Shown here piece by piece: positions 54,585 to 64,000 of a DNA stretch of 64,000 nt (its first letter is position 1; the number at the start of each line of letters is the position of its first letter). The notes beneath the pieces are model-generated. The model made no database searches and had not been told where the DNA came from. It was given only the letters and a program-made list of their open reading frames with translations. The translations under genes were made by a program, and so were the position numbers. Origin of the DNA: Escherichia coli. Its GTDB lineage: Bacteria > Pseudomonadota > Gammaproteobacteria > Enterobacterales > Enterobacteriaceae. The stretch lies in assembly GCF_003334305.1 (NCBI RefSeq), contig NZ_QOWS01000003.1; one strand, 5' to 3'.

Positions 54585-55817
54585 TCACCGCTCCTCCGCC
54601 AGCTCGGCAGCCTGATGTTGGCGCACGCGATTGAGCAATCCTGCCAGGGTGAAAACGACGATAACGCCCGCCACGACGGCTAACAGATGAAACGGCAAGC
54701 GACCGCCGTTAAACCACAGCCAGCGGCCGATTTCGACCGAGACAGACATCACCATCAGGATCACCATATTCAGCGATGCGGAGACGGTTCCTTTCGGTAA
54801 GTTATTGGAAAAAAGCGTAAAGCGGAATAAGGTCGGGAAGATCAAACCAATCCCGAAAGCATACAAACTGGTGCCCAGCACCGACCACAGCCAGACGTGC
54901 GGTGACAGCAGATTGCCGATAATCAACAGCGCGAGGCCGACCAGTTGAATGGGTACAGCACGCCAGATAAAGCGCGGTTCGGTCGGATCTTTAACGAAAC
55001 GCGCCACGATGGCATTCGCGACAATCACCGCGCCGAACACCGGAACCTGTGTCCAGGCGAACTGCGAAGTTGTTAAGCCGCCTGCGTCAATCAGGATCAC
55101 CGGCGAGACAGCCACCCAACTCATCATCGGGATATAGCTTAAAGAGATGGTTGCTGCGCCAAAGAGGAACAGCCGGTTGCAAAAGACATTACGAAAATCG
55201 CGCAAGACGCTTTTGGCGCTAAATGGAACCGCGCCGCGCTTCACCGTCTCTGGCATCGCCAGCAGTAAGCCAACAAATGAGATAAACCCCATAACCGCAA
55301 TGATGGCAAAAAGGACTTTCCAGTGCACAAAGTGCATCAGAGCTGCGCCGGAAAGCGGGCCAATAATCGGCGCAATCAGTACGATGGAGGTGATAATCGC
55401 CATCAACTTAATCCCTTTTGTCTGTCCGAACGCCTCCTGCACCGTGACATAACCAACGGTAGCAATAAAACAGATACTGGTGCCCTGAATTGCACGCGCG
55501 ATAAGAAACTGTGTCATAGACGTTGTGAACATTGTCGCAGCGCAGGCAAGGGTAAATATTAGCGCCCCGGTAATCAGCACCGGCCTGCGGCCAATCCTGT
55601 CGGAAAGCGGCCCCAGCAGCCACTGTAACGCCATACCCCCCGCGAGATAGAGACTGACGGCAGCCGGAGCCAGACTGACATCGGCATTAAAATCACGGAC
55701 CACATTAATGATCCCCGGCTGGATCAGATCCGTCGAAAGATAGGCGGCAAAGTCATACAAAATCAACGCCATCGGGAAAAACAGCGTAGCGGCATGGCGG
55801 GCAAAAAAACGTGGCAT
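54585..55817 (-). CDS. mdtM: MFS multidrug efflux transporter MdtM
   Basis: [26 protein letters not shown] ... (about 410 aa), 12-TMS MFS. Confidence 0.92.
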
Positions 55818-56283
55818 AACAAACAACTCCTTGTCCGGAGAACCCCAACGGGGAAAACGAAATTCAATACCGTCGGTAATGACGAAAGGCAGGCGAGAAG
55901 GACAAATGTACTGAATTTCATGTAATCAACCACACTGCCTGTGAACACACAGACAGAGAAATACCTTCTGACTCCAGGTCAGAATGTATAACGATTACAA
56001 ATAGTCATCAGCACATTACACCTCTTTAATTGATGGGTTGCATAGAAAATATACACCTTAAGTGTAATTAAAATTTGCGGTTAATCAAAAGAGCGCGGTG
56101 GAAAGGGGAATATCTGCCGGGTACAGGAAATGTAAAACGCGAGCCTGTTTCCGGAAAAATGTATCGTTTGCAGAGGAACACAAATAGCCTGGAAAGCGCC
56201 TCGGGGAACGAGAAATTGCCGGGTGAGAATGGTTTTGTTAGTCGCTACAGTCGGGCCATCTTATCTACAGGTGACGGATCGCC

Positions 56284-57228
56284 ATGACAAACTTCACAAC
56301 CAGCACGCCGCATGACGCATTATTTAAATCCTTTCTCACGCACCCTGACACCGCGCGGGATTTTATGGAGATCCACTTACCCAAAGATTTACGTGAACTG
56401 TGCGATCTCGACAGCTTAAAACTGGAATCCGCCAGCTTCGTCGATGAAAAATTGCGGGCGCTACACTCCGATATTCTGTGGTCGGTAAAGACCCGTGAAG
56501 GTGATGGTTATATTTACGTAGTGATTGAACATCAGAGCCGCGAGGATATCCATATGGCCTTTCGCCTGATGCGATATTCCATGGCGGTGATGCAGCGCCA
56601 TATCGAGCATGATAAACGCCGGCCGCTACCGCTGGTCATCCCGATGCTGTTTTATCACGGTAGCCGTAGTCCTTATCCCTGGTCCCTGTGCTGGCTGGAC
56701 GAATTTGCTGACCCGACCACCGCACGGAAGCTTTATACCGCAGCGTTCCCGCTGGTGGATGTCACTGTCGTGCCAGACGACGAGATTGTGCAGCACCGCA
56801 GAGTCGCCCTGTTGGAGTTGATCCAAAAGCATATTCGCCAGCGCGATCTGATGGGGCTTATCGATCAACTGGTAATATTACTGGTTACAGAGTGTGCTAA
56901 TGACAGCCAGATAACTGCGCTGTTAAATTACATTTTACTGACTGGCGATGAAGCGCGTTTTAAGAAGTTTATCAGCGAACTTACCCGTCGAATGCCACAA
57001 CACAGGGAGCGAATAATGACGATTGCAGAGCGAATTTATAATGATGGATGGCTGTTGGGGATGGAAAAGGGGAAAGAAGAAGGGGAACAACGCCTCCTTA
57101 GATTGTTGTTGCAGAATGGGGCAGATCCTGAATGGATACAAAAGATTACCGGACTTTCGACAGAGCAAATGCAGGCATTAGAGCAGCCCTTGCCTGAAAT
57201 CAAGCGCGATCCATGGATCGAATACTAA
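56284..57228 (+). CDS. rpnD: Rpn-family recombination-promoting nuclease-like protein (PD-(D/E)XK, transposase_31 fold), apparently intact
   Basis: 314-aa uninterrupted ORF starting [33 protein letters not shown] with [11 protein letters not shown] in the nuclease core. Confidence 0.8.
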
Positions 57229-57318
57229 TCAGAGACGGATGACAAACGCAAAGCTGCCTGATGCGCTACGCTTATCAGACCTACATTTCCTCTGCAATCT
57301 ATTGAATTTGCGCGGTTT

Positions 57319-57352
57319 GTAGGCCGGATAAGGCGTTCACGCCGCATCCGGT
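57319..57352. repeat. REP element
   Basis: gtaggccggataaggcgttcacgccgcatccgg. Confidence 0.7.
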
Positions 57353-57469
57353 ATGAACGAAGCACACTTTGCCTAAGCCATGCTGGAACGTGGCGATGAC
57401 CCTGCAAAGATACAACGAGTTACAGGCGATTCGTGAGAGGAAATCAGGTGCTTCGCCACTAATTCGAAT

Positions 57470-58882
57470 TTATTCCATTGCCCGATACACGGCCTCGCCA
57501 ATTTGCTTTAGTGCTTCGCGATAGGTTTCGCTGAGCGGCAAAGCGCAGTTGATGCGTAGACAATTACGGTATTTGCCGGAAGCCGAGAAAATCGAGCCTG
57601 CTGCCACCTGGATATTCATGCGGCACAGCTGCCGCGCAACGCAGACCATATCGACCTGTTCAGGCAATTCTATCCACAGTAAAAATCCGCCTTTCGGGCG
57701 CGTAATACAGATTTCGCAGGGAAAATATTCCCGTATCCAGCAGGTATAAAGCGCCAAATTGCGCTGATAGCTCTGCCGCATCCGCCGGATATGGCGATGA
57801 TAGTGACCTTCCAGCACAAACGTTGCCGCCGCCATTTGCGTGGACGGCACATTAAAGCTGCTGATGGCGTATTTCATATGCATCAGTTTATCGTGATAAC
57901 GCCCCGGTGCGACCCAACCCACGCGCAGGCCTGGAGCAATACTTTTACTGAACGAGCTGCACAACAACACTCGCCCGTCGATATCCCATGAATGGATGGT
58001 CCGCGGGCGCGGATACTCCGTTGCCAGTTCGCCGTAGACATCATCTTCAAAAATCACAATATCATGACGCTGAGCGAGAGAGAGAACGGCCCGTTTGCGT
58101 GCGTCCGGCATAATAAATCCCAGCGGATTATTACAGTTTGGCACCAGAATGATGCCTTTAATCGGCCACTGTTCCAGCGCCAGTTCCAGTGCTTCAACGC
58201 TGATGCCAGTTTCTGGATCGGTTGGGATTTCAATCACTTTCACGCCCATGCCTCGCAGCATCTGCATCGAACCGTAATAACAGGGAGATTCGACCGCGAC
58301 AATATCGCCCGGTTTACACACCGCCATTAACGCCAGCGACATCGAGTTATGGCAGCCGCTGGTGATGATGATGTCATCGGCGGTGACCACCGAGCCGCTG
58401 TCGAGCATCAGGCGGGCAATCTGCTCCCGCAACACTCGCTGACCGGCTAACAAGTCATAACCGAGAACGGTTTGCAGATTATGCTGCACCACCCGGCTTA
58501 GCTCACGCCACAGCGGTTTCAGGCTGGGCGTTTCGACATCCGGCGTGCTTTTGCTTAACGGAACAATGGAATTGTCGCTATGCGCCTCCAGCATATCCAG
58601 CACCTGATCCCACTGGGTAATTTCCACCGGGCGCTGCACCGGACGCGTCATCGGCGGTACAGGCGGCTGGGCTTTACGTTGTGCGACAAAATAACCCGAA
58701 CGCGGCTGCGGAGTGATGAGCCTCATCGTTTCCAGCGTCTGATACGCCTGTTGCACGGTGCTGATGCTGACGCCGTGCTCCTGACTTAAGCTGCGCACCG
58801 ACGGCAATTTCTCCCCGTGACGATACAGCCCTTGCTCAATCCGCTCGGCAAGTAGAGTCGCCAGATGTTGATAACGCGTCAT
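57470..58882 (-). CDS. yjiR: MocR-type regulator (GntR HTH fused to a PLP aminotransferase-like domain) YjiR
   Basis: 470 aa; N-terminal winged HTH (EKLPSVRSLSQEHGVSISTVQQAYQTLE) and a fold-type I aminotransferase domain. Confidence 0.9.
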   Translation of the reverse strand: MTRYQHLATLLAERIEQGLYRHGEKLPSVRSLSQEHGVSISTVQQAYQTLETMRLITPQPRSGYFVAQRKAQPPVPPMTRPVQRPVEITQWDQVLDMLEAHSDNSIVPLSKSTPDVETPSLKPLWRELSRVVQHNLQTVLGYDLLAGQRVLREQIARLMLDSGSVVTADDIIITSGCHNSMSLALMAVCKPGDIVAVESPCYYGSMQMLRGMGVKVIEIPTDPETGISVEALELALEQWPIKGIILVPNCNNPLGFIMPDARKRAVLSLAQRHDIVIFEDDVYGELATEYPRPRTIHSWDIDGRVLLCSSFSKSIAPGLRVGWVAPGRYHDKLMHMKYAISSFNVPSTQMAAATFVLEGHYHRHIRRMRQSYQRNLALYTCWIREYFPCEICITRPKGGFLLWIELPEQVDMVCVARQLCRMNIQVAAGSIFSASGKYRNCLRINCALPLSETYREALKQIGEAVYRAME

Positions 58883-59058: not shown

Positions 59059-59223
59059 ATGGAATTTCACGAAAACAAAGCCAAAACGCCGTTTATCAGA
59101 CTTGTGCAACTCTGGCATGCGGTGAGGCGTTGGCGGCGGCAAATGCAGACCCGACGAGTGTTACAGCAGATGAGTGATGAACGGTTGAGGGATATTGGGT
59201 TACGCAGGGAGGATGTGGAGTGA
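59059..59223 (+). CDS. yjiS: Small DUF1127 protein YjiS
   Basis: 54-aa ORF MEFHENKAKTPFIRLVQLWHAVRRWRRQMQTRRVLQQMSDERLRDIGLRREDVE with GAGGAGG upstream; below the ORF-track length cutoff. Confidence 0.8.
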   Translation: MEFHENKAKTPFIRLVQLWHAVRRWRRQMQTRRVLQQMSDERLRDIGLRREDVE

Positions 59224-59574
59224 ACTATGGGCGGCGTGTTGGCAAATGCTGCCTGTCTGCATTCAAAATTGCTACAAAATCCAACCATAAAAGTCGTTTA
59301 CAACATATTTTTCTGATTTACATACAGATAATGACCTGAGCTGTCTCTCTGGGGGTCATCATCTATGCGTCCGGGGGATCTGTCACAAAAAGGAATAGAA
59401 CAAAATCATCAGCGGTGAATAAAGCGATTCGTTTTAGATCACATTAATGAAATTTTTGTATCAAAAATTAGTTATCGCGCTCACAGTTCATAATGAAACA
59501 ATTCTCTGCAAATAGATAACCGAAGCTTCGTTGCTAGTATCAATTCGCTAATTATACACCTGCCAGAGGATACA

Positions 59575-62115
59575 ATGAAAAATAGAAATCGTATGATCGT
59601 GAACTGTGTTACTGCTTCCCTGATGTATTATTGGAGCTTACCTGCACTGGCTGAGCAGTCGTCAAGTGAGATAAAGATTGTTCGCGATGAATACGGCATG
59701 CCGCATATTTATGCCAATGATACATGGCACCTATTTTATGGCTATGGCTATGTAGTAGCACAAGATCGCCTTTTTCAGATGGAAATGGCACGTCGCAGTA
59801 CTCAAGGGACTGTCGCGGAAGTGCTTGGCAAAGATTTTGTGAAATTTGATAAAGATATCCGTCGTAACTACTGGCCGGATGCTATCCGGGCGCAAATTGC
59901 TGCCCTTTCCCCAGAGGATATGTCCATTCTGCAAGGCTACGCTGATGGAATGAATGCCTGGATTGATAAGGTAAATACCAATCCAGAGACGCTCTTACCA
60001 AAACAGTTTAATACATTTGGCTTTACTCCTAAGCGCTGGGAACCGTTTGATGTCGCGATGATATTTGTGGGCACCATGGCAAACCGCTTCTCTGATAGCA
60101 CTAGCGAAATTGATAATCTGGCACTGCTAACGGCTTTAAAAGATAAATATGGTGTATCACAAGGCATGGCGGTATTTAATCAGTTGAAATGGCTGGTAAA
60201 CCCATCAGCGCCAACCACTATTGCCGTACAAGAGAGTAACTACCCACTTAAATTTAATCAGCAAAACTCGCAAACAGCAGCTCTGTTGCCACGCTACGAT
60301 TTACCTGCACCAATGCTTGACCGACCAGCAAAAGGGGCGGATGGCGCACTGCTGGCGTTAACAGCAGGGAAGAACCGGGAAACTATTGCTGCACAATTTG
60401 CACAGGGTGGTGCCAATGGTCTGGCGGGGTATCCAACGACCAGCAATATGTGGGTGATCGGCAAAAGCAAAGCCCAGGATGCGAAAGCAATCATGGTAAA
60501 TGGTCCGCAGTTTGGCTGGTATGCGCCTGCGTATACTTATGGTATTGGTCTGCACGGTGCTGGTTATGATGTCACTGGCAATACACCATTTGCCTATCCT
60601 GGGCTGGTTTTTGGTCATAATGGTGTGATTTCCTGGGGATCAACGGCAGGTTTCGGCGATGATGTCGATATTTTTGCTGAACGGCTGTCGGCAGAGAAAC
60701 CAGGCTACTACTTGCATAATGGTAAGTGGGTGAAAATGTTAAGCCGTGAGGAAACCATTACGGTGAAAAATGGTCAGGCAGAGACCTTTACTGTCTGGCG
60801 TACGGTGCATGGCAACATTCTCCAAACTGACCAGACGACACAAACGGCTTACGCTAAATCCCGCGCATGGGATGGTAAAGAGGTGGCGTCTTTGCTGGCC
60901 TGGACTCATCAGATGAAGGCCAAAAATTGGCAGGAGTGGACACAGCAGGCAGCGAAACAAGCACTGACCATCAACTGGTACTATGCTGATGTAAACGGCA
61001 ATATTGGTTATGTTCATACTGGTGCTTATCCAGATCGTCAATCAGGCCATGATCCGCGATTACCCGTTCCTGGTACGGGAAAATGGGACTGGAAAGGGCT
61101 ATTGCCTTTTGAAATGAACCCTAAGGTGTATAACCCCCAGTCGGGATATATTGCTAACTGGAACAATTCTCCCCAAAAAGATTATCCCGCTTCAGATCTG
61201 TTTGCCTTTTTGTGGGGTGGTGCAGATCGCGTTACGGAGATCGACCGACTGCTTGAGCAAAAGCCACGCTTAACTGCTGATCAGGCATGGGATGTTATTC
61301 GCCAAACCAGTCGTCAGGATCTTAACCTGAGGCTTTTTTTACCTACTCTGCAAGCAGCGACATCTGGTTTGACACAGAGCGATCCGCGTCGTCAGTTGGT
61401 AGAAACATTAACACGTTGGGATGGCATCAATTTGCTTAATGATGATGGTAAAACCTGGCAGCAGCCAGGCTCTGCCATCCTGAACGTTTGGCTGACCAGT
61501 ATGTTGAAGCGTACCGTAGTGGCTGCCGTACCTATGCCATTTGATAAGTGGTACAGCGCCAGTGGCTACGAAACAACCCAGGACGGCCCAACTGGTTCGC
61601 TGAATATAAGTGTTGGAGCAAAAATTTTGTATGAGGCGGTGCAGGGAGACAAATCACCAATCCCACAGGCGGTTGATCTGTTTGCTGGGAAACCACAGCA
61701 GGAGGTTGTGTTGGCTGCGCTGGAAGATACCTGGGAGACTCTTTCCAAACGCTATGGCAATAATGTGAGTAACTGGAAAACACCTGCAATGGCCTTAACG
61801 TTCCGGGCAAATAATTTCTTTGGTGTACCGCAGGCCGCAGCGGAAGAAACGCGTCATCAGGCGGAGTATCAAAACCGTGGAACAGAAAACGATATGATTG
61901 TTTTCTCACCAACGACAAGCGATCGTCCTGTGCTTGCCTGGGATGTGGTCGCACCCGGTCAGAGTGGGTTTATTGCTCCCGATGGAACAGTTGATAAGCA
62001 CTATGAAGATCAGCTGAAAATGTACGAAAATTTTGGCCGTAAGTCGCTCTGGTTAACGAAGCAGGATGTGGAGGCGCATAAGGAGTCGCAGGAAGTGTTG
62101 CACGTTCAGAGATAA
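59575..62115 (+). CDS. pac: Penicillin G acylase precursor (Ntn-hydrolase)
   Basis: 846 aa; [74 protein letters not shown] matches remembered E. coli penicillin G amidase (signal peptide, alpha subunit, spacer, beta subunit beginning SNMWVIG). Confidence 0.95.
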
Positions 62116-62130
62116 TTAAGCCCGAAAGCC

Positions 62131-62158
62131 CTCATATTCTGGAGGAATATGAGGGTGA
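62131..62158. terminator. Hairpin between convergent pac and yjiA
   Basis: ccctcatattc / gaatatgaggg stem with a 5-nt loop; flanking T-runs are weak. Confidence 0.35.
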
Positions 62159-62192
62159 TAAAGTCTCAGGTATTGTGATGTTGGAGGGCTGG

Positions 62193-63149
62193 TTACTTTT
62201 TGAGTCCCGCAAACGCCGCCCGAATCTCATCCTCCGGCAACTGAATCCCGATAAACACCATCGTGCTATGCGGTGTTTCATCGCCCCATGGCCTGTCCCA
62301 GTCGGCGCTGTAGAGGCGCTGGACGCCCTGGAACAGCAGGCGGTTAGGTTCGCCGTCAATCCACAGCATCCCTTTGTAACGCAGCAGTTTATCCGCCGAT
62401 TCCAGCAGCAGGTTTTCCATCACCCGGGAAACTTCGCTGATATCTACCGGGTAATCCAGTTCCACCACAATCGACGAAATATCGTTTTGTTTGTCCGCGA
62501 TAAAATGGAAACGCGGTTTGGTGCTGACGACGTTTTCTTCCAGCATAAAACCGTTGGTGTTGAACAGCAGACCCAGGTCGATGTCGCCGTGGGTGACGGT
62601 GTAGACCGGTGCACGGGCGTTGATGCGTGCCAGACGTTCACGCAGTTTTTCTGCTTCGCCTGCGACGTCGGTTTTAGTCAGCAGAATACGGTCGGCGTAG
62701 CCCACCTGGGACTGGGCGATGGTGAACTGGTTCATCTGCTCATCGGCATGTACCGCATCCACCAGCGCAATCACGCCGTCCAGCAGGTAGCGCTGGCATA
62801 AAATCTCATGGGAGAAAAAGGTTTGAATAATCGGGCCAGGATCGGCCATGCCGGTGCATTCAATGACCAGACGATCGAACTGAATATTGCCCTTGTCGAG
62901 ATTATCCAGCAGGTCGAGTAGCGCGTCCTCCAGCTCGTTGGAGCGCGAACAGCAGATGCAGCCGTTGGTCAGCGTTTTGATCTGCGTTGCGCGATCACCA
63001 ATCAATTGATCATCAACGGAGACTTCGCCGAATTCGTTTTCAATCACGGCAATCTTGTAGCCGTGTTGTTCATTAAGAATATGGCGCAGCAGGGTGGTTT
63101 TGCCCGCGCCTAAAAAACCGGTGAGTAGGGTAACTGCAATCGGGTTCAT
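62193..63149 (-). CDS. yjiA: CobW/COG0523-family GTPase YjiA
   Basis: MNPIAVTLLTGFLGAGKTTLLRHILNE (P-loop) and a GCICC motif; 318 aa from the ATG at 63149. Confidence 0.93.
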   Translation of the reverse strand: MNPIAVTLLTGFLGAGKTTLLRHILNEQHGYKIAVIENEFGEVSVDDQLIGDRATQIKTLTNGCICCSRSNELEDALLDLLDNLDKGNIQFDRLVIECTGMADPGPIIQTFFSHEILCQRYLLDGVIALVDAVHADEQMNQFTIAQSQVGYADRILLTKTDVAGEAEKLRERLARINARAPVYTVTHGDIDLGLLFNTNGFMLEENVVSTKPRFHFIADKQNDISSIVVELDYPVDISEVSRVMENLLLESADKLLRYKGMLWIDGEPNRLLFQGVQRLYSADWDRPWGDETPHSTMVFIGIQLPEDEIRAAFAGLKK

Positions 63150-63159
63150 GCTCTCTCCA

Positions 63160-63363
63160 TTAACAACAGCGCATACCGCCTTTACCATCGCCGCCGTAGC
63201 GTGCGTTCTGGCGTTCGCGGAAGAATTCTTCATAGCTCATGTACGGCTTGTCGGGATGGTTGGTCTTCATATGCTCGACGTAGTTGTCGTAGTCTGGAAT
63301 GCCAATCAACATCTTCGCCGCCTGGCCGAGATATTTTTTTGCCTGTCCTAAGTTACCAAACAT
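63160..63363 (-). CDS. yjiX: Small DUF466 protein YjiX
   Basis: 67 aa [58 protein letters not shown]; partner of the downstream CstA-family transporter. Confidence 0.88.
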
Positions 63364-63412
63364 AGTTCACTCTGATAAGAACAAAGCCCCGCCGAAGCGG
63401 GGCTAAATACGG

Positions 63413-64000
63413 TTAGTGGTGCGAAGAGATCTTCACGCCGCCTTCCGGGATTGGAACGTACGGTGTTTCTTTGTCAGTACGTTTGTCGCTGTTACGCACA
63501 TTCAGCCAGGTTTTGAAACCGTAGAAGATGATGCTGTACACCACAATCAGGAACAGAATACTCAGGCCTGCGTTGGTGTAGTTGTTCACAACGATGTGGT
63601 TCATGTTGGCAATCTGCTGCGCCGTCAGGTCAGTACCGTTAGCAATCTTCTCTTTGTACTGGCTTGCCATGTAGAAGAAGCCTTCCATCTGCGGGTTGGT
63701 GCTGAACAGTTTCAGACCCAGCGCCCAGGTGGTGCAGATAAGCAGCCATACAGCCGGAACAACAGTTACCCAGATGTATTGGGTGCGCTTCATCTTAATC
63801 AGCACAACGGTGCCCAGTACCAGCGCTACGGCTGCCAGCATCTGGTTGGAAATACCGAACAGCGGCCACAGGCTCTTAACGCCGCCCAGCGGATCGACCA
63901 CGCCCTGATACAGCAGGTAGCCCCACAGACCCACACAGCCCGCAGTACCGATGATACCGGCAACCAGAGAGTCGGTTTTTTTCAGGAACGGGATGAAGTT
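63413..64000 (-). CDS. btsT: CstA-family pyruvate/peptide transporter BtsT (YjiY), 3' part only; gene continues past the window end
   Basis: Hydrophobic C-terminal segment ending KETPYVPIPEGGVKISSHH; the frame stays open to position 64000. Confidence 0.85.
   Translation of the reverse strand, partial: NFIPFLKKTDSLVAGIIGTAGCVGLWGYLLYQGVVDPLGGVKSLWPLFGISNQMLAAVALVLGTVVLIKMKRTQYIWVTVVPAVWLLICTTWALGLKLFSTNPQMEGFFYMASQYKEKIANGTDLTAQQIANMNHIVVNNYTNAGLSILFLIVVYSIIFYGFKTWLNVRNSDKRTDKETPYVPIPEGGVKISSHH

Follow-up and report, generated by a model that had tools for sequence, protein, structure and literature searches.

An intact rpnD gene at the mdtM–yjiR site of an Escherichia coli chromosome, with a predicted internal start for a small RpnD_S protein

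The closest described relatives of the gene reported here are the rpnD of E. coli K-12, its K-12 paralogue RpnA (YhgA), and the plasmid-borne RpnP2 of strain ECOR13. In RpnA, the substitutions D11A, D63A, E82A, and Q84K abolish all phenotypes, with D63A inactive both in vivo and in vitro; recombination promotion is lost in R94A and Q84A, and D165A is hyperactive (PMC5350276). Zhong et al. (2023; PMC10400941) described an internal in-frame start in all five K-12 rpn genes, giving a small protein, RpnS, that blocks the toxic full-length RpnL. This block was demonstrated directly for RpnA, RpnB, and RpnC, and each RpnS acts on its own RpnL only; mutation of M244 abolishes RpnA_S, and internal transcription starts are reported for every K-12 rpn gene (PMC10400941). 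Ribosome profiling places initiation peaks at the internal starts of rpnA to rpnE, and RpnD_S has been detected in MG1655 (10.1101/520783, PMC10400941). Four-residue repeats that start 8 to 20 residues past the RpnS methionine vary by strain and set the specificity between RpnL and RpnS (PMC10400941)—for RpnC, the pairing of small antitoxin and nuclease has been reported to depend on the number of repeats. The structure of RpnA_S (PDB 7TH0) is a three-helix bundle that dimerizes through helix 1. Within the family, phage defense has been demonstrated for RpnP2 only, against T-even phages (PMC10400941).

The K-12 rpnD gene has a history of its own. Both yjiP and yjiQ are listed as its synonyms in a published gene table (PMC9504249), and Kingston et al. 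(2015; PMC4498929) reported that YjiP is complete in most E. coli, the K-12 stop being a point mutation. They made a synthetic repaired K-12 yjiP, called yjiPc, which raised RecA-independent recombination ~5-fold in conjugal crosses (PMC4498929, PMC5350276), killed recA cells in a dose-dependent manner, and induced the SOS response (PMC4498929). The 2017 study by Kingston and colleagues is silent on the stop codon because its “RpnD” is the repaired yjiPc of 2015. We had considered amber suppression in the NEB strains as the source of the active K-12 “RpnD” in the 2017 study; this was dropped, as the repaired gene had been synthesized (2015 paper).

How does the locus examined here compare? The window—the whole 64,000-nt stretch of E. 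coli DNA that was analyzed (contig NZ_QOWS01000003.1)—contains, in the ORF list and on reading the sequence, one ATG-initiated ORF of 314 codons plus a stop (Table 1), and the ORF list holds no ORF of comparable size in the other reading frames across the same interval. The ORF is flanked by mdtM (54585..55826, − strand) and yjiR (57470..58882, − strand), the same synteny as in K-12 and other E. coli. The chromosomes of strains CFSAN061769 and HY220605 carry the surrounding 1.5 kb with 100% identity, and RefSeq annotates the identical ORF of CFSAN061769 as WP_000181170.1, [quoted passage not shown] Over the final 20 kb the window is colinear with CFSAN061769 at 99.5% identity, which assigns it to an E. 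coli chromosome. The protein matches the Pfam family PF04754 (Transposase_31, YhgA-like) with E = 1.3e-86, residues 8 to 210 aligning with model positions 1 to 202 of 203, and scores 173 bits against the NCBIfam model of the Rpn family (COG5464), TIGR01784, well over the membership threshold of 52.1. Its score with the RpnA equivalog model NF007361 (378.9 bits) falls below the curated cutoff of 583, so that it is a paralogue of RpnA rather than RpnA itself. Aligned with the four intact K-12 paralogues, taken from NC_000913.3, it shares 57% identity with RpnA, 63% with RpnB, 48% with RpnC, and 55% with RpnE; identity to the conceptual translation of K-12 RpnD is 93%. Judged by its sequence, the ORF is a genuine gene rather than a chance ORF. 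As a whole, the locus is very probably best explained as an intact chromosomal rpnD orthologue at the usual mdtM–yjiR site, with an RpnD_L/RpnD_S organization predicted from its relatives.

Table 1. Positions of rpnD and of the sites discussed in the text, in window coordinates
Feature	Position	Strand	Basis
rpnD CDS, product RpnD_L (314 aa + stop)	56284..57228	+	ORF list; same DNA annotated WP_000181170.1
YhgA-like / Transposase_31 domain, residues 8–210, containing the PD-(D/E)XK nuclease core	56305..56913	+	Pfam PF04754
Codon D11 (RpnA D11A mutant dead)	56314..56316	+	Invariant column, PMC5350276
Codon D63 (GAT), catalytic Asp of the PD motif	56470..56472	+	Invariant in both alignments, PMC5350276
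Codons E82-H83-Q84, (D/E)XK motif with Q replacing K	56527..56535	+	Alignments, PMC5350276
Codon R94	56563..56565	+	Invariant in both alignments; RpnA R94A
Codon Q104 (CAG); TAG in K-12	56593..56595	+	Sequence, DNA alignment with K-12, K-12 translation
PDDE motif, P164–E167	56773..56784	+	Alignments, PMC5350276
Candidate internal promoter for a short rpnD_S transcript, ATGACA-18-TAAATT, TG before −10	56900..56929	+	Consensus scan
Shine-Dalgarno AGGGAG for the internal start	57004..57009	+	Sequence; 15/16 alleles
Nested in-frame gene, predicted RpnD_S, 70 aa, pI 4.6, start M245 (ATG, 57016–57018)	57016..57228	+	Conserved Met; RpnA M244 alignment
Variable four-residue repeat region	57049..57084	+	Allele alignment, DNA alignment with K-12

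Are the residues on which RpnA depends still in place? When the window protein is aligned with K-12 RpnA, RpnB, RpnC, and RpnE, residues D11, D63, E82, Q84, R94, and D165 are all invariant; across a 24-sequence homologue alignment, D11, D63, E82, and R94 are likewise invariant, with Q84 and D165 nearly so. The PDDE motif (P164-D165-D166-E167) is invariant among the K-12 paralogues and at least 90% conserved in the 24 homologues. Codons 1 to 244, compared pairwise with 15 other E. coli alleles by the Nei–Gojobori method, gave dN/dS of 0.03 to 0.16 at dS of 0.06 to 0.20, ratios which indicate that the nuclease domain is under purifying selection. Over the last 47 codons, dN is roughly 10 times that of the nuclease domain, and dN/dS is 0.3 to 0.7. 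The first-pass annotation had described a single intact 314-aa ORF and proposed that the strain may retain an active recombination-promoting nuclease. The ORF is indeed uninterrupted from its ATG start through its stop. The PD-(D/E)XK triad of D63, E82, and Q84 is conserved, as are D11, R94, and D165; because these residues are kept and the domain is under purifying selection, the proposal of a retained nuclease is supported by the sequence. Synonymous divergence between alleles of the nuclease domain (56284–57015) reaches 0.19 to 0.20, for example, between the window and the K-12 type. This is high for a gene within one species; long-standing allelic lineages, or recombination affecting the locus, could account for it.

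Structure prediction was less informative. AlphaFold2, run on the 24-sequence alignment, returned a low-confidence model (mean pLDDT 59.5, pTM 0.41), for which a Foldseek search of the PDB gave nothing at E ≤ 0.001; a sequence search of the PDB with the full-length protein gave nothing at E ≤ 0.01. The modeled order of secondary structure in this low-confidence model—helices, three strands (D63, E82), a helix with R94, and a strand—is no more than consistent with a PD-(D/E)XK core. With a poor model and no Foldseek match, the fold assignment rests on sequence and on published predictions. At the C terminus, helices are modeled at residues 238–261, 263–277, and 282–289, at a pLDDT of just 50 to 73.

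Where does K-12 depart from the intact gene? In NC_000913.3, rpnD (b4584) is a pseudogene at 4568998..4569918, between mdtM (b4337) and yjiR (b4340), and PGAP flags the interval with “internal stop.” Its translation contains one stop, at codon 104, and one substitution, at ORF nt 310 (CAG→TAG), is all that separates the K-12 ORF from its intact 306-aa counterpart in canine strain 1428. The statement in the first-pass annotation that the K-12 orthologue is split into yjiP and yjiQ and carried as an inactive rpnD therefore holds in the reference genome, as well as in the synonyms of the gene table (PMC9504249), and its concern that K-12 might be intact as well is answered by the TAG at codon 104, the sole difference from the strain 1428 allele. 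We used the exact 61-mer around the K-12 TAG as a probe and looked it up in 5,426 complete E. coli genomes, 338 of which contain it. In a spread sample of the carriers, all 16 genomes were 4.5 to 4.7 Mb, and most were recognizable K-12 derivatives (MG1655, JM109, ER1709, KLY). The 61-mer matches E. coli C and BL21-type strains at all but one position.

The window gene and K-12 RpnD (YjiP/YjiQ, b4584; “YjiPc” when repaired) are orthologues that share the mdtM–yjiR position, 93% protein identity, the catalytic residues, and the internal start. They differ in the TAG at codon 104 and in allele length: K-12 has 306 aa and the window 314, since K-12 lacks the two four-residue repeat units that make up window residues 260–267. 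The C-terminal nonapeptide is RERYSWLKS in K-12 and IKRDPWIEY in the window, and there are six further substitutions in codons 1 to 244. Relative to the repaired K-12 protein that was assayed, then, the window allele differs at 7% of residues, carries eight inserted residues, and has different last nine residues.

How common are intact copies of rpnD? Among 20 E. coli loci, spaced evenly along the list of locus-search matches ranked by similarity, the gene is annotated as intact in 16 (306, 314, or 318 aa) and is disrupted in 4, by three different lesions. One is the K-12 nonsense codon. Two, in CDC#03-98 and cattle strain 137, have a 25-nt tandem duplication right after the internal start, and their ORFs are identical to each other. 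The fourth, in poultry strain E7 (NZ_CP104523.1), lacks 1 nt, at ORF nt 398. The presence of disrupted copies in 4/20 sampled strains implies that rpnD is dispensable. Full-length orthologues form large clusters in a large protein collection, with 2,569 and 1,060 members at 314 aa and 3,918 at 318 aa. At megablast sensitivity, at least 80% of the 1.5-kb locus is found in 3,975 of the 5,426 complete genomes, and about a quarter of the genomes are without most of it. An intact rpnD is thus the ordinary state in E. coli and K-12 is the exception; this strain shows no special retention of the gene. None of this is new in outline: the intact gene is already in RefSeq, and papers from 2015 to 2017 describe both the exceptional state of K-12 and the activity of its repaired protein.

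Two of the disrupted copies allow further observations. The 25-nt duplication (GACGATTGCAGAGCGAATTCATAAT), at about ORF nt 736–785 in two genomes of ~5.4 Mb (L015, NZ_CP022689.1; L023, NZ_CP028626.1), shifts the C-terminal frame of both RpnD_L and RpnD_S and leaves the nuclease-domain frame intact to residue 254. In strain E7, the neighboring yjiR is also flagged “internal stop,” and damage to both neighbors points to errors in the assembly or to a locus that is decaying as a whole.

The first-pass annotation overlooked one layer of this gene: an Rpn nuclease is a toxin, and the small protein that restrains it is encoded inside the nuclease gene itself (PMC10400941). Does the window allele have the corresponding internal start? 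A Shine-Dalgarno sequence, AGGGAG, stands 6 nt before the ATG of M245. The ATG is kept in 16/16 alleles and AGGGAG in 15/16, the remaining one being AGAGAG in the frameshifted L015. The dipeptide M245-T246 is invariant in the five K-12 paralogues and in the 24 homologues, and M245 aligns with M244 of RpnA. From these features, the internal start should yield a 70-aa RpnD_S, the predicted antitoxin. A promoter-like site lies further upstream (Table 1), within conserved coding sequence, and its hexamers are identical in 16/16 alleles; the consensus scan found no more promoter-like sites in the region than in shuffled sequence. This site could serve a short transcript.

Set against RpnA, RpnD of the window has the same architecture, a nuclease domain and, after it, a variable C-terminal domain, which RpnA also produces as a protein of its own (RpnA_S, PDB 7TH0), along with the 57% identity, the six conserved residues, and the aligned internal methionine given above. 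It differs in being a paralogue—RpnA is encoded at the feoC–bioH locus—and in a C-terminal domain that can barely be aligned with that of RpnA, the match of RpnD_S to the 7TH0 crystal-structure sequence being weak (E = 0.2). RpnP2 belongs to the same family and, from its description in PMC10400941, is likened to the window gene in its L/S gene-within-gene organization; it differs in being plasmid-borne and in being the one member with demonstrated defense against T-even phages.

The part of the gene in which the alleles differ in length is the repeat region, which begins at RpnD_S residue 12, inside the range of 8 to 20 residues reported for the family (PMC10400941). The window has 8 residues more here than K-12 and 4 fewer than the 318-aa alleles. 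Sampled alleles of 306, 314, and 318 aa correspond to zero, two, and three extra xxxG units, so the window carries two more than K-12, and database homologues have lengths of 306, 310, 314, 318, and 322 aa—steps of four residues. The K-12-type alleles have just YIKG here, where the 318-aa alleles have WLLG-RERG-RKEG-K(V/E)EG. Tandem Repeats Finder detected no DNA-level tandem array in 56950–57230, since there are too few four-residue units and they have diverged too far.

Separately, residues 21–40 of RpnD_S (57076–57135) resemble the ankyrin-repeat consensus xGHxEIVKLLLxxGADPN. An ankyrin fold for RpnD_S was considered and rejected: in a PDB sequence search with RpnD_S alone, designed ankyrin proteins were the top matches, with E down to 9e-8, but single stretches had i-Evalues of 22 to 240, and the score was summed over repeats that all matched one 20-residue motif. 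The ankyrin-like stretch is probably a convergent helix-turn motif.

How might such a gene work? By extension from close relatives, RpnD_L would be a Mg2+-dependent DNA endonuclease with a PD-(D/E)XK fold and little sequence specificity. When over-produced, it would be expected to damage the chromosome, induce SOS, kill recA cells, and increase RecA-independent recombination, as the repaired K-12 allele (93% identical) does. The 70-aa RpnD_S would be translated separately from the internal start and would bind the matching C-terminal domain of RpnD_L and block it, the two forming a gene-within-a-gene toxin–antitoxin pair in which, as in related systems, repeat number may set which RpnS pairs with which RpnL. 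A single C→T change cost K-12 the toxin; the RpnD_S part is retained.

By analogy with RpnP2, the biological role of the pair is likely phage defense. Neither RpnD_L nor RpnD_S matched a family in PADLOC-DB 2.0.0 at E ≤ 0.01. That library, of 2023, may be older than the Rpn report; with no matching model, it lends the defense role no independent support. A more specific proposal, which we put forward tentatively and hold to be possible but on balance doubtful, is that the RpnD_L/RpnD_S pair of this strain, with its two repeats, functions as a chromosomal abortive-infection module beside the variable immigration-control region, that repeat number sets immunity groups among strains, and that K-12 RpnD_S is an orphan antitoxin. 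On this view, the recurrent and independent loss of the toxin part—by the K-12 nonsense codon, the 25-nt duplication, and the 1-nt deletion—suggests that it carries a cost.

Might RpnD instead serve mainly in RecA-independent recombination and horizontal transfer around the neighboring “immigration control region,” and not in phage defense? The ~5-fold effect of the repaired K-12 yjiP in conjugal crosses (PMC4498929, PMC5350276) points that way, and rpnD does border a variable region, with K-12 homology stopping at window position 59223 and a penicillin G acylase gene coming next. Yet the effect required 200-fold over-expression in recA cells, and its authors were without evidence that YjiP targets the replacement events (PMC4498929); nuclease damage alone could account for it indirectly, and the later study recasts the family as toxin–antitoxin defense systems (PMC10400941). 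We consider this role unlikely, and favor an intact toxin–antitoxin gene with a likely part in phage defense.

The surroundings of rpnD have several features of their own. Colinearity with K-12 ends just past yjiS. The stretch from about 59224 to 64000, by colinearity with CFSAN061769, contains the penicillin G acylase gene (~59575–62115, + strand) and then yjiA; at this point K-12 continues instead with yjiT and the remainder of its variable region. Between rpnD and yjiR, positions 57233–57374 contain REP-type repeated sequence (e.g., GCCTGATGCGCTACGCTTATCAG and GTAGGCCGGATAAGGCG), and this stretch alone matches tens of places in each of the 5,426 E. coli genomes (median 31). In the mdtM–rpnD intergenic region, DNA identical to the K-12 small ORF ytiE (b4823; 11 codons, VLMTICNRYTF) lies at 55979–56014 on the − strand. 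Four of the sampled loci (JA0265, MS8324, AR_0089, and Z247) are without mdtM, and there rpnD adjoins yjiN. Downstream, yjiR is intact in JA0265 and reduced to a GntR-type fragment in AR_0089 and Z247, and in MS8324, DUF262 and GmrSD restriction-endonuclease genes stand in its place. What flanks rpnD thus varies between strains, and defense genes are at times among its neighbors.

Somewhat less probable than a main role in recombination is that the ORF is intact yet silent, with RpnD_L unmade or always neutralized, the strain phenotypically like K-12, and the locus acting through RpnD_S or not at all. At the threshold of the consensus scan there is no sigma-70-like promoter upstream of 56284 on the + strand. 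In MG1655, RpnS is far more abundant than RpnL, and even the intact RpnA_L is undetectable (PMC10400941); RpnD_L is undetectable there because of the stop codon. Loss is also tolerated, as the three lesions among 4/20 sampled strains attest. Against silence stand the retention of every catalytic residue and the strong purifying selection on the nuclease domain at dS of 0.06 to 0.20, which would be unexpected for a domain that is never expressed.

That the gene is the transposase of an insertion-sequence-like element, its intact ORF marking a still-active mobile element, has next to nothing left to recommend it: the Pfam name Transposase_31 and the best NCBIfam row, “ISNCY family transposase” (NF007418), suggest as much, but the score of 392.5 bits is below the curated cutoff of 583; the gene lies between the arms of an imperfect 23-nt inverted repeat, 56156–56178 and 57287–57309 (78% complementary), but the exact core of the repeat is 11 nt, of which we estimate ~0.3 matches by chance in 1.6 kb, and its right arm is not conserved in K-12; the window has one copy of the gene; the site is fixed in 20/20 E. 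coli loci, beside mdtM (or yjiN) and yjiR, its remnant, or its replacement genes; and Zhong et al. (PMC10400941), finding variable ends and neither terminal inverted repeats nor target-site duplications, judged Rpn proteins very unlikely to be transposases. A search of the window for a second rpn copy or an extra downstream RpnS-like gene found none.

What does an intact rpnD at its usual chromosomal site mean for E. coli? Beyond annotation its importance is small. The gene is correctly named rpnD (intact) and not “putative transposase,” and K-12 is unsuitable as the reference state for this locus. Of modest value are the nested RpnD_S gene and the repeat number of the allele, two units above K-12. 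Phage defense by chromosomal RpnD would be more naturally studied in a strain that has the gene intact than in K-12.
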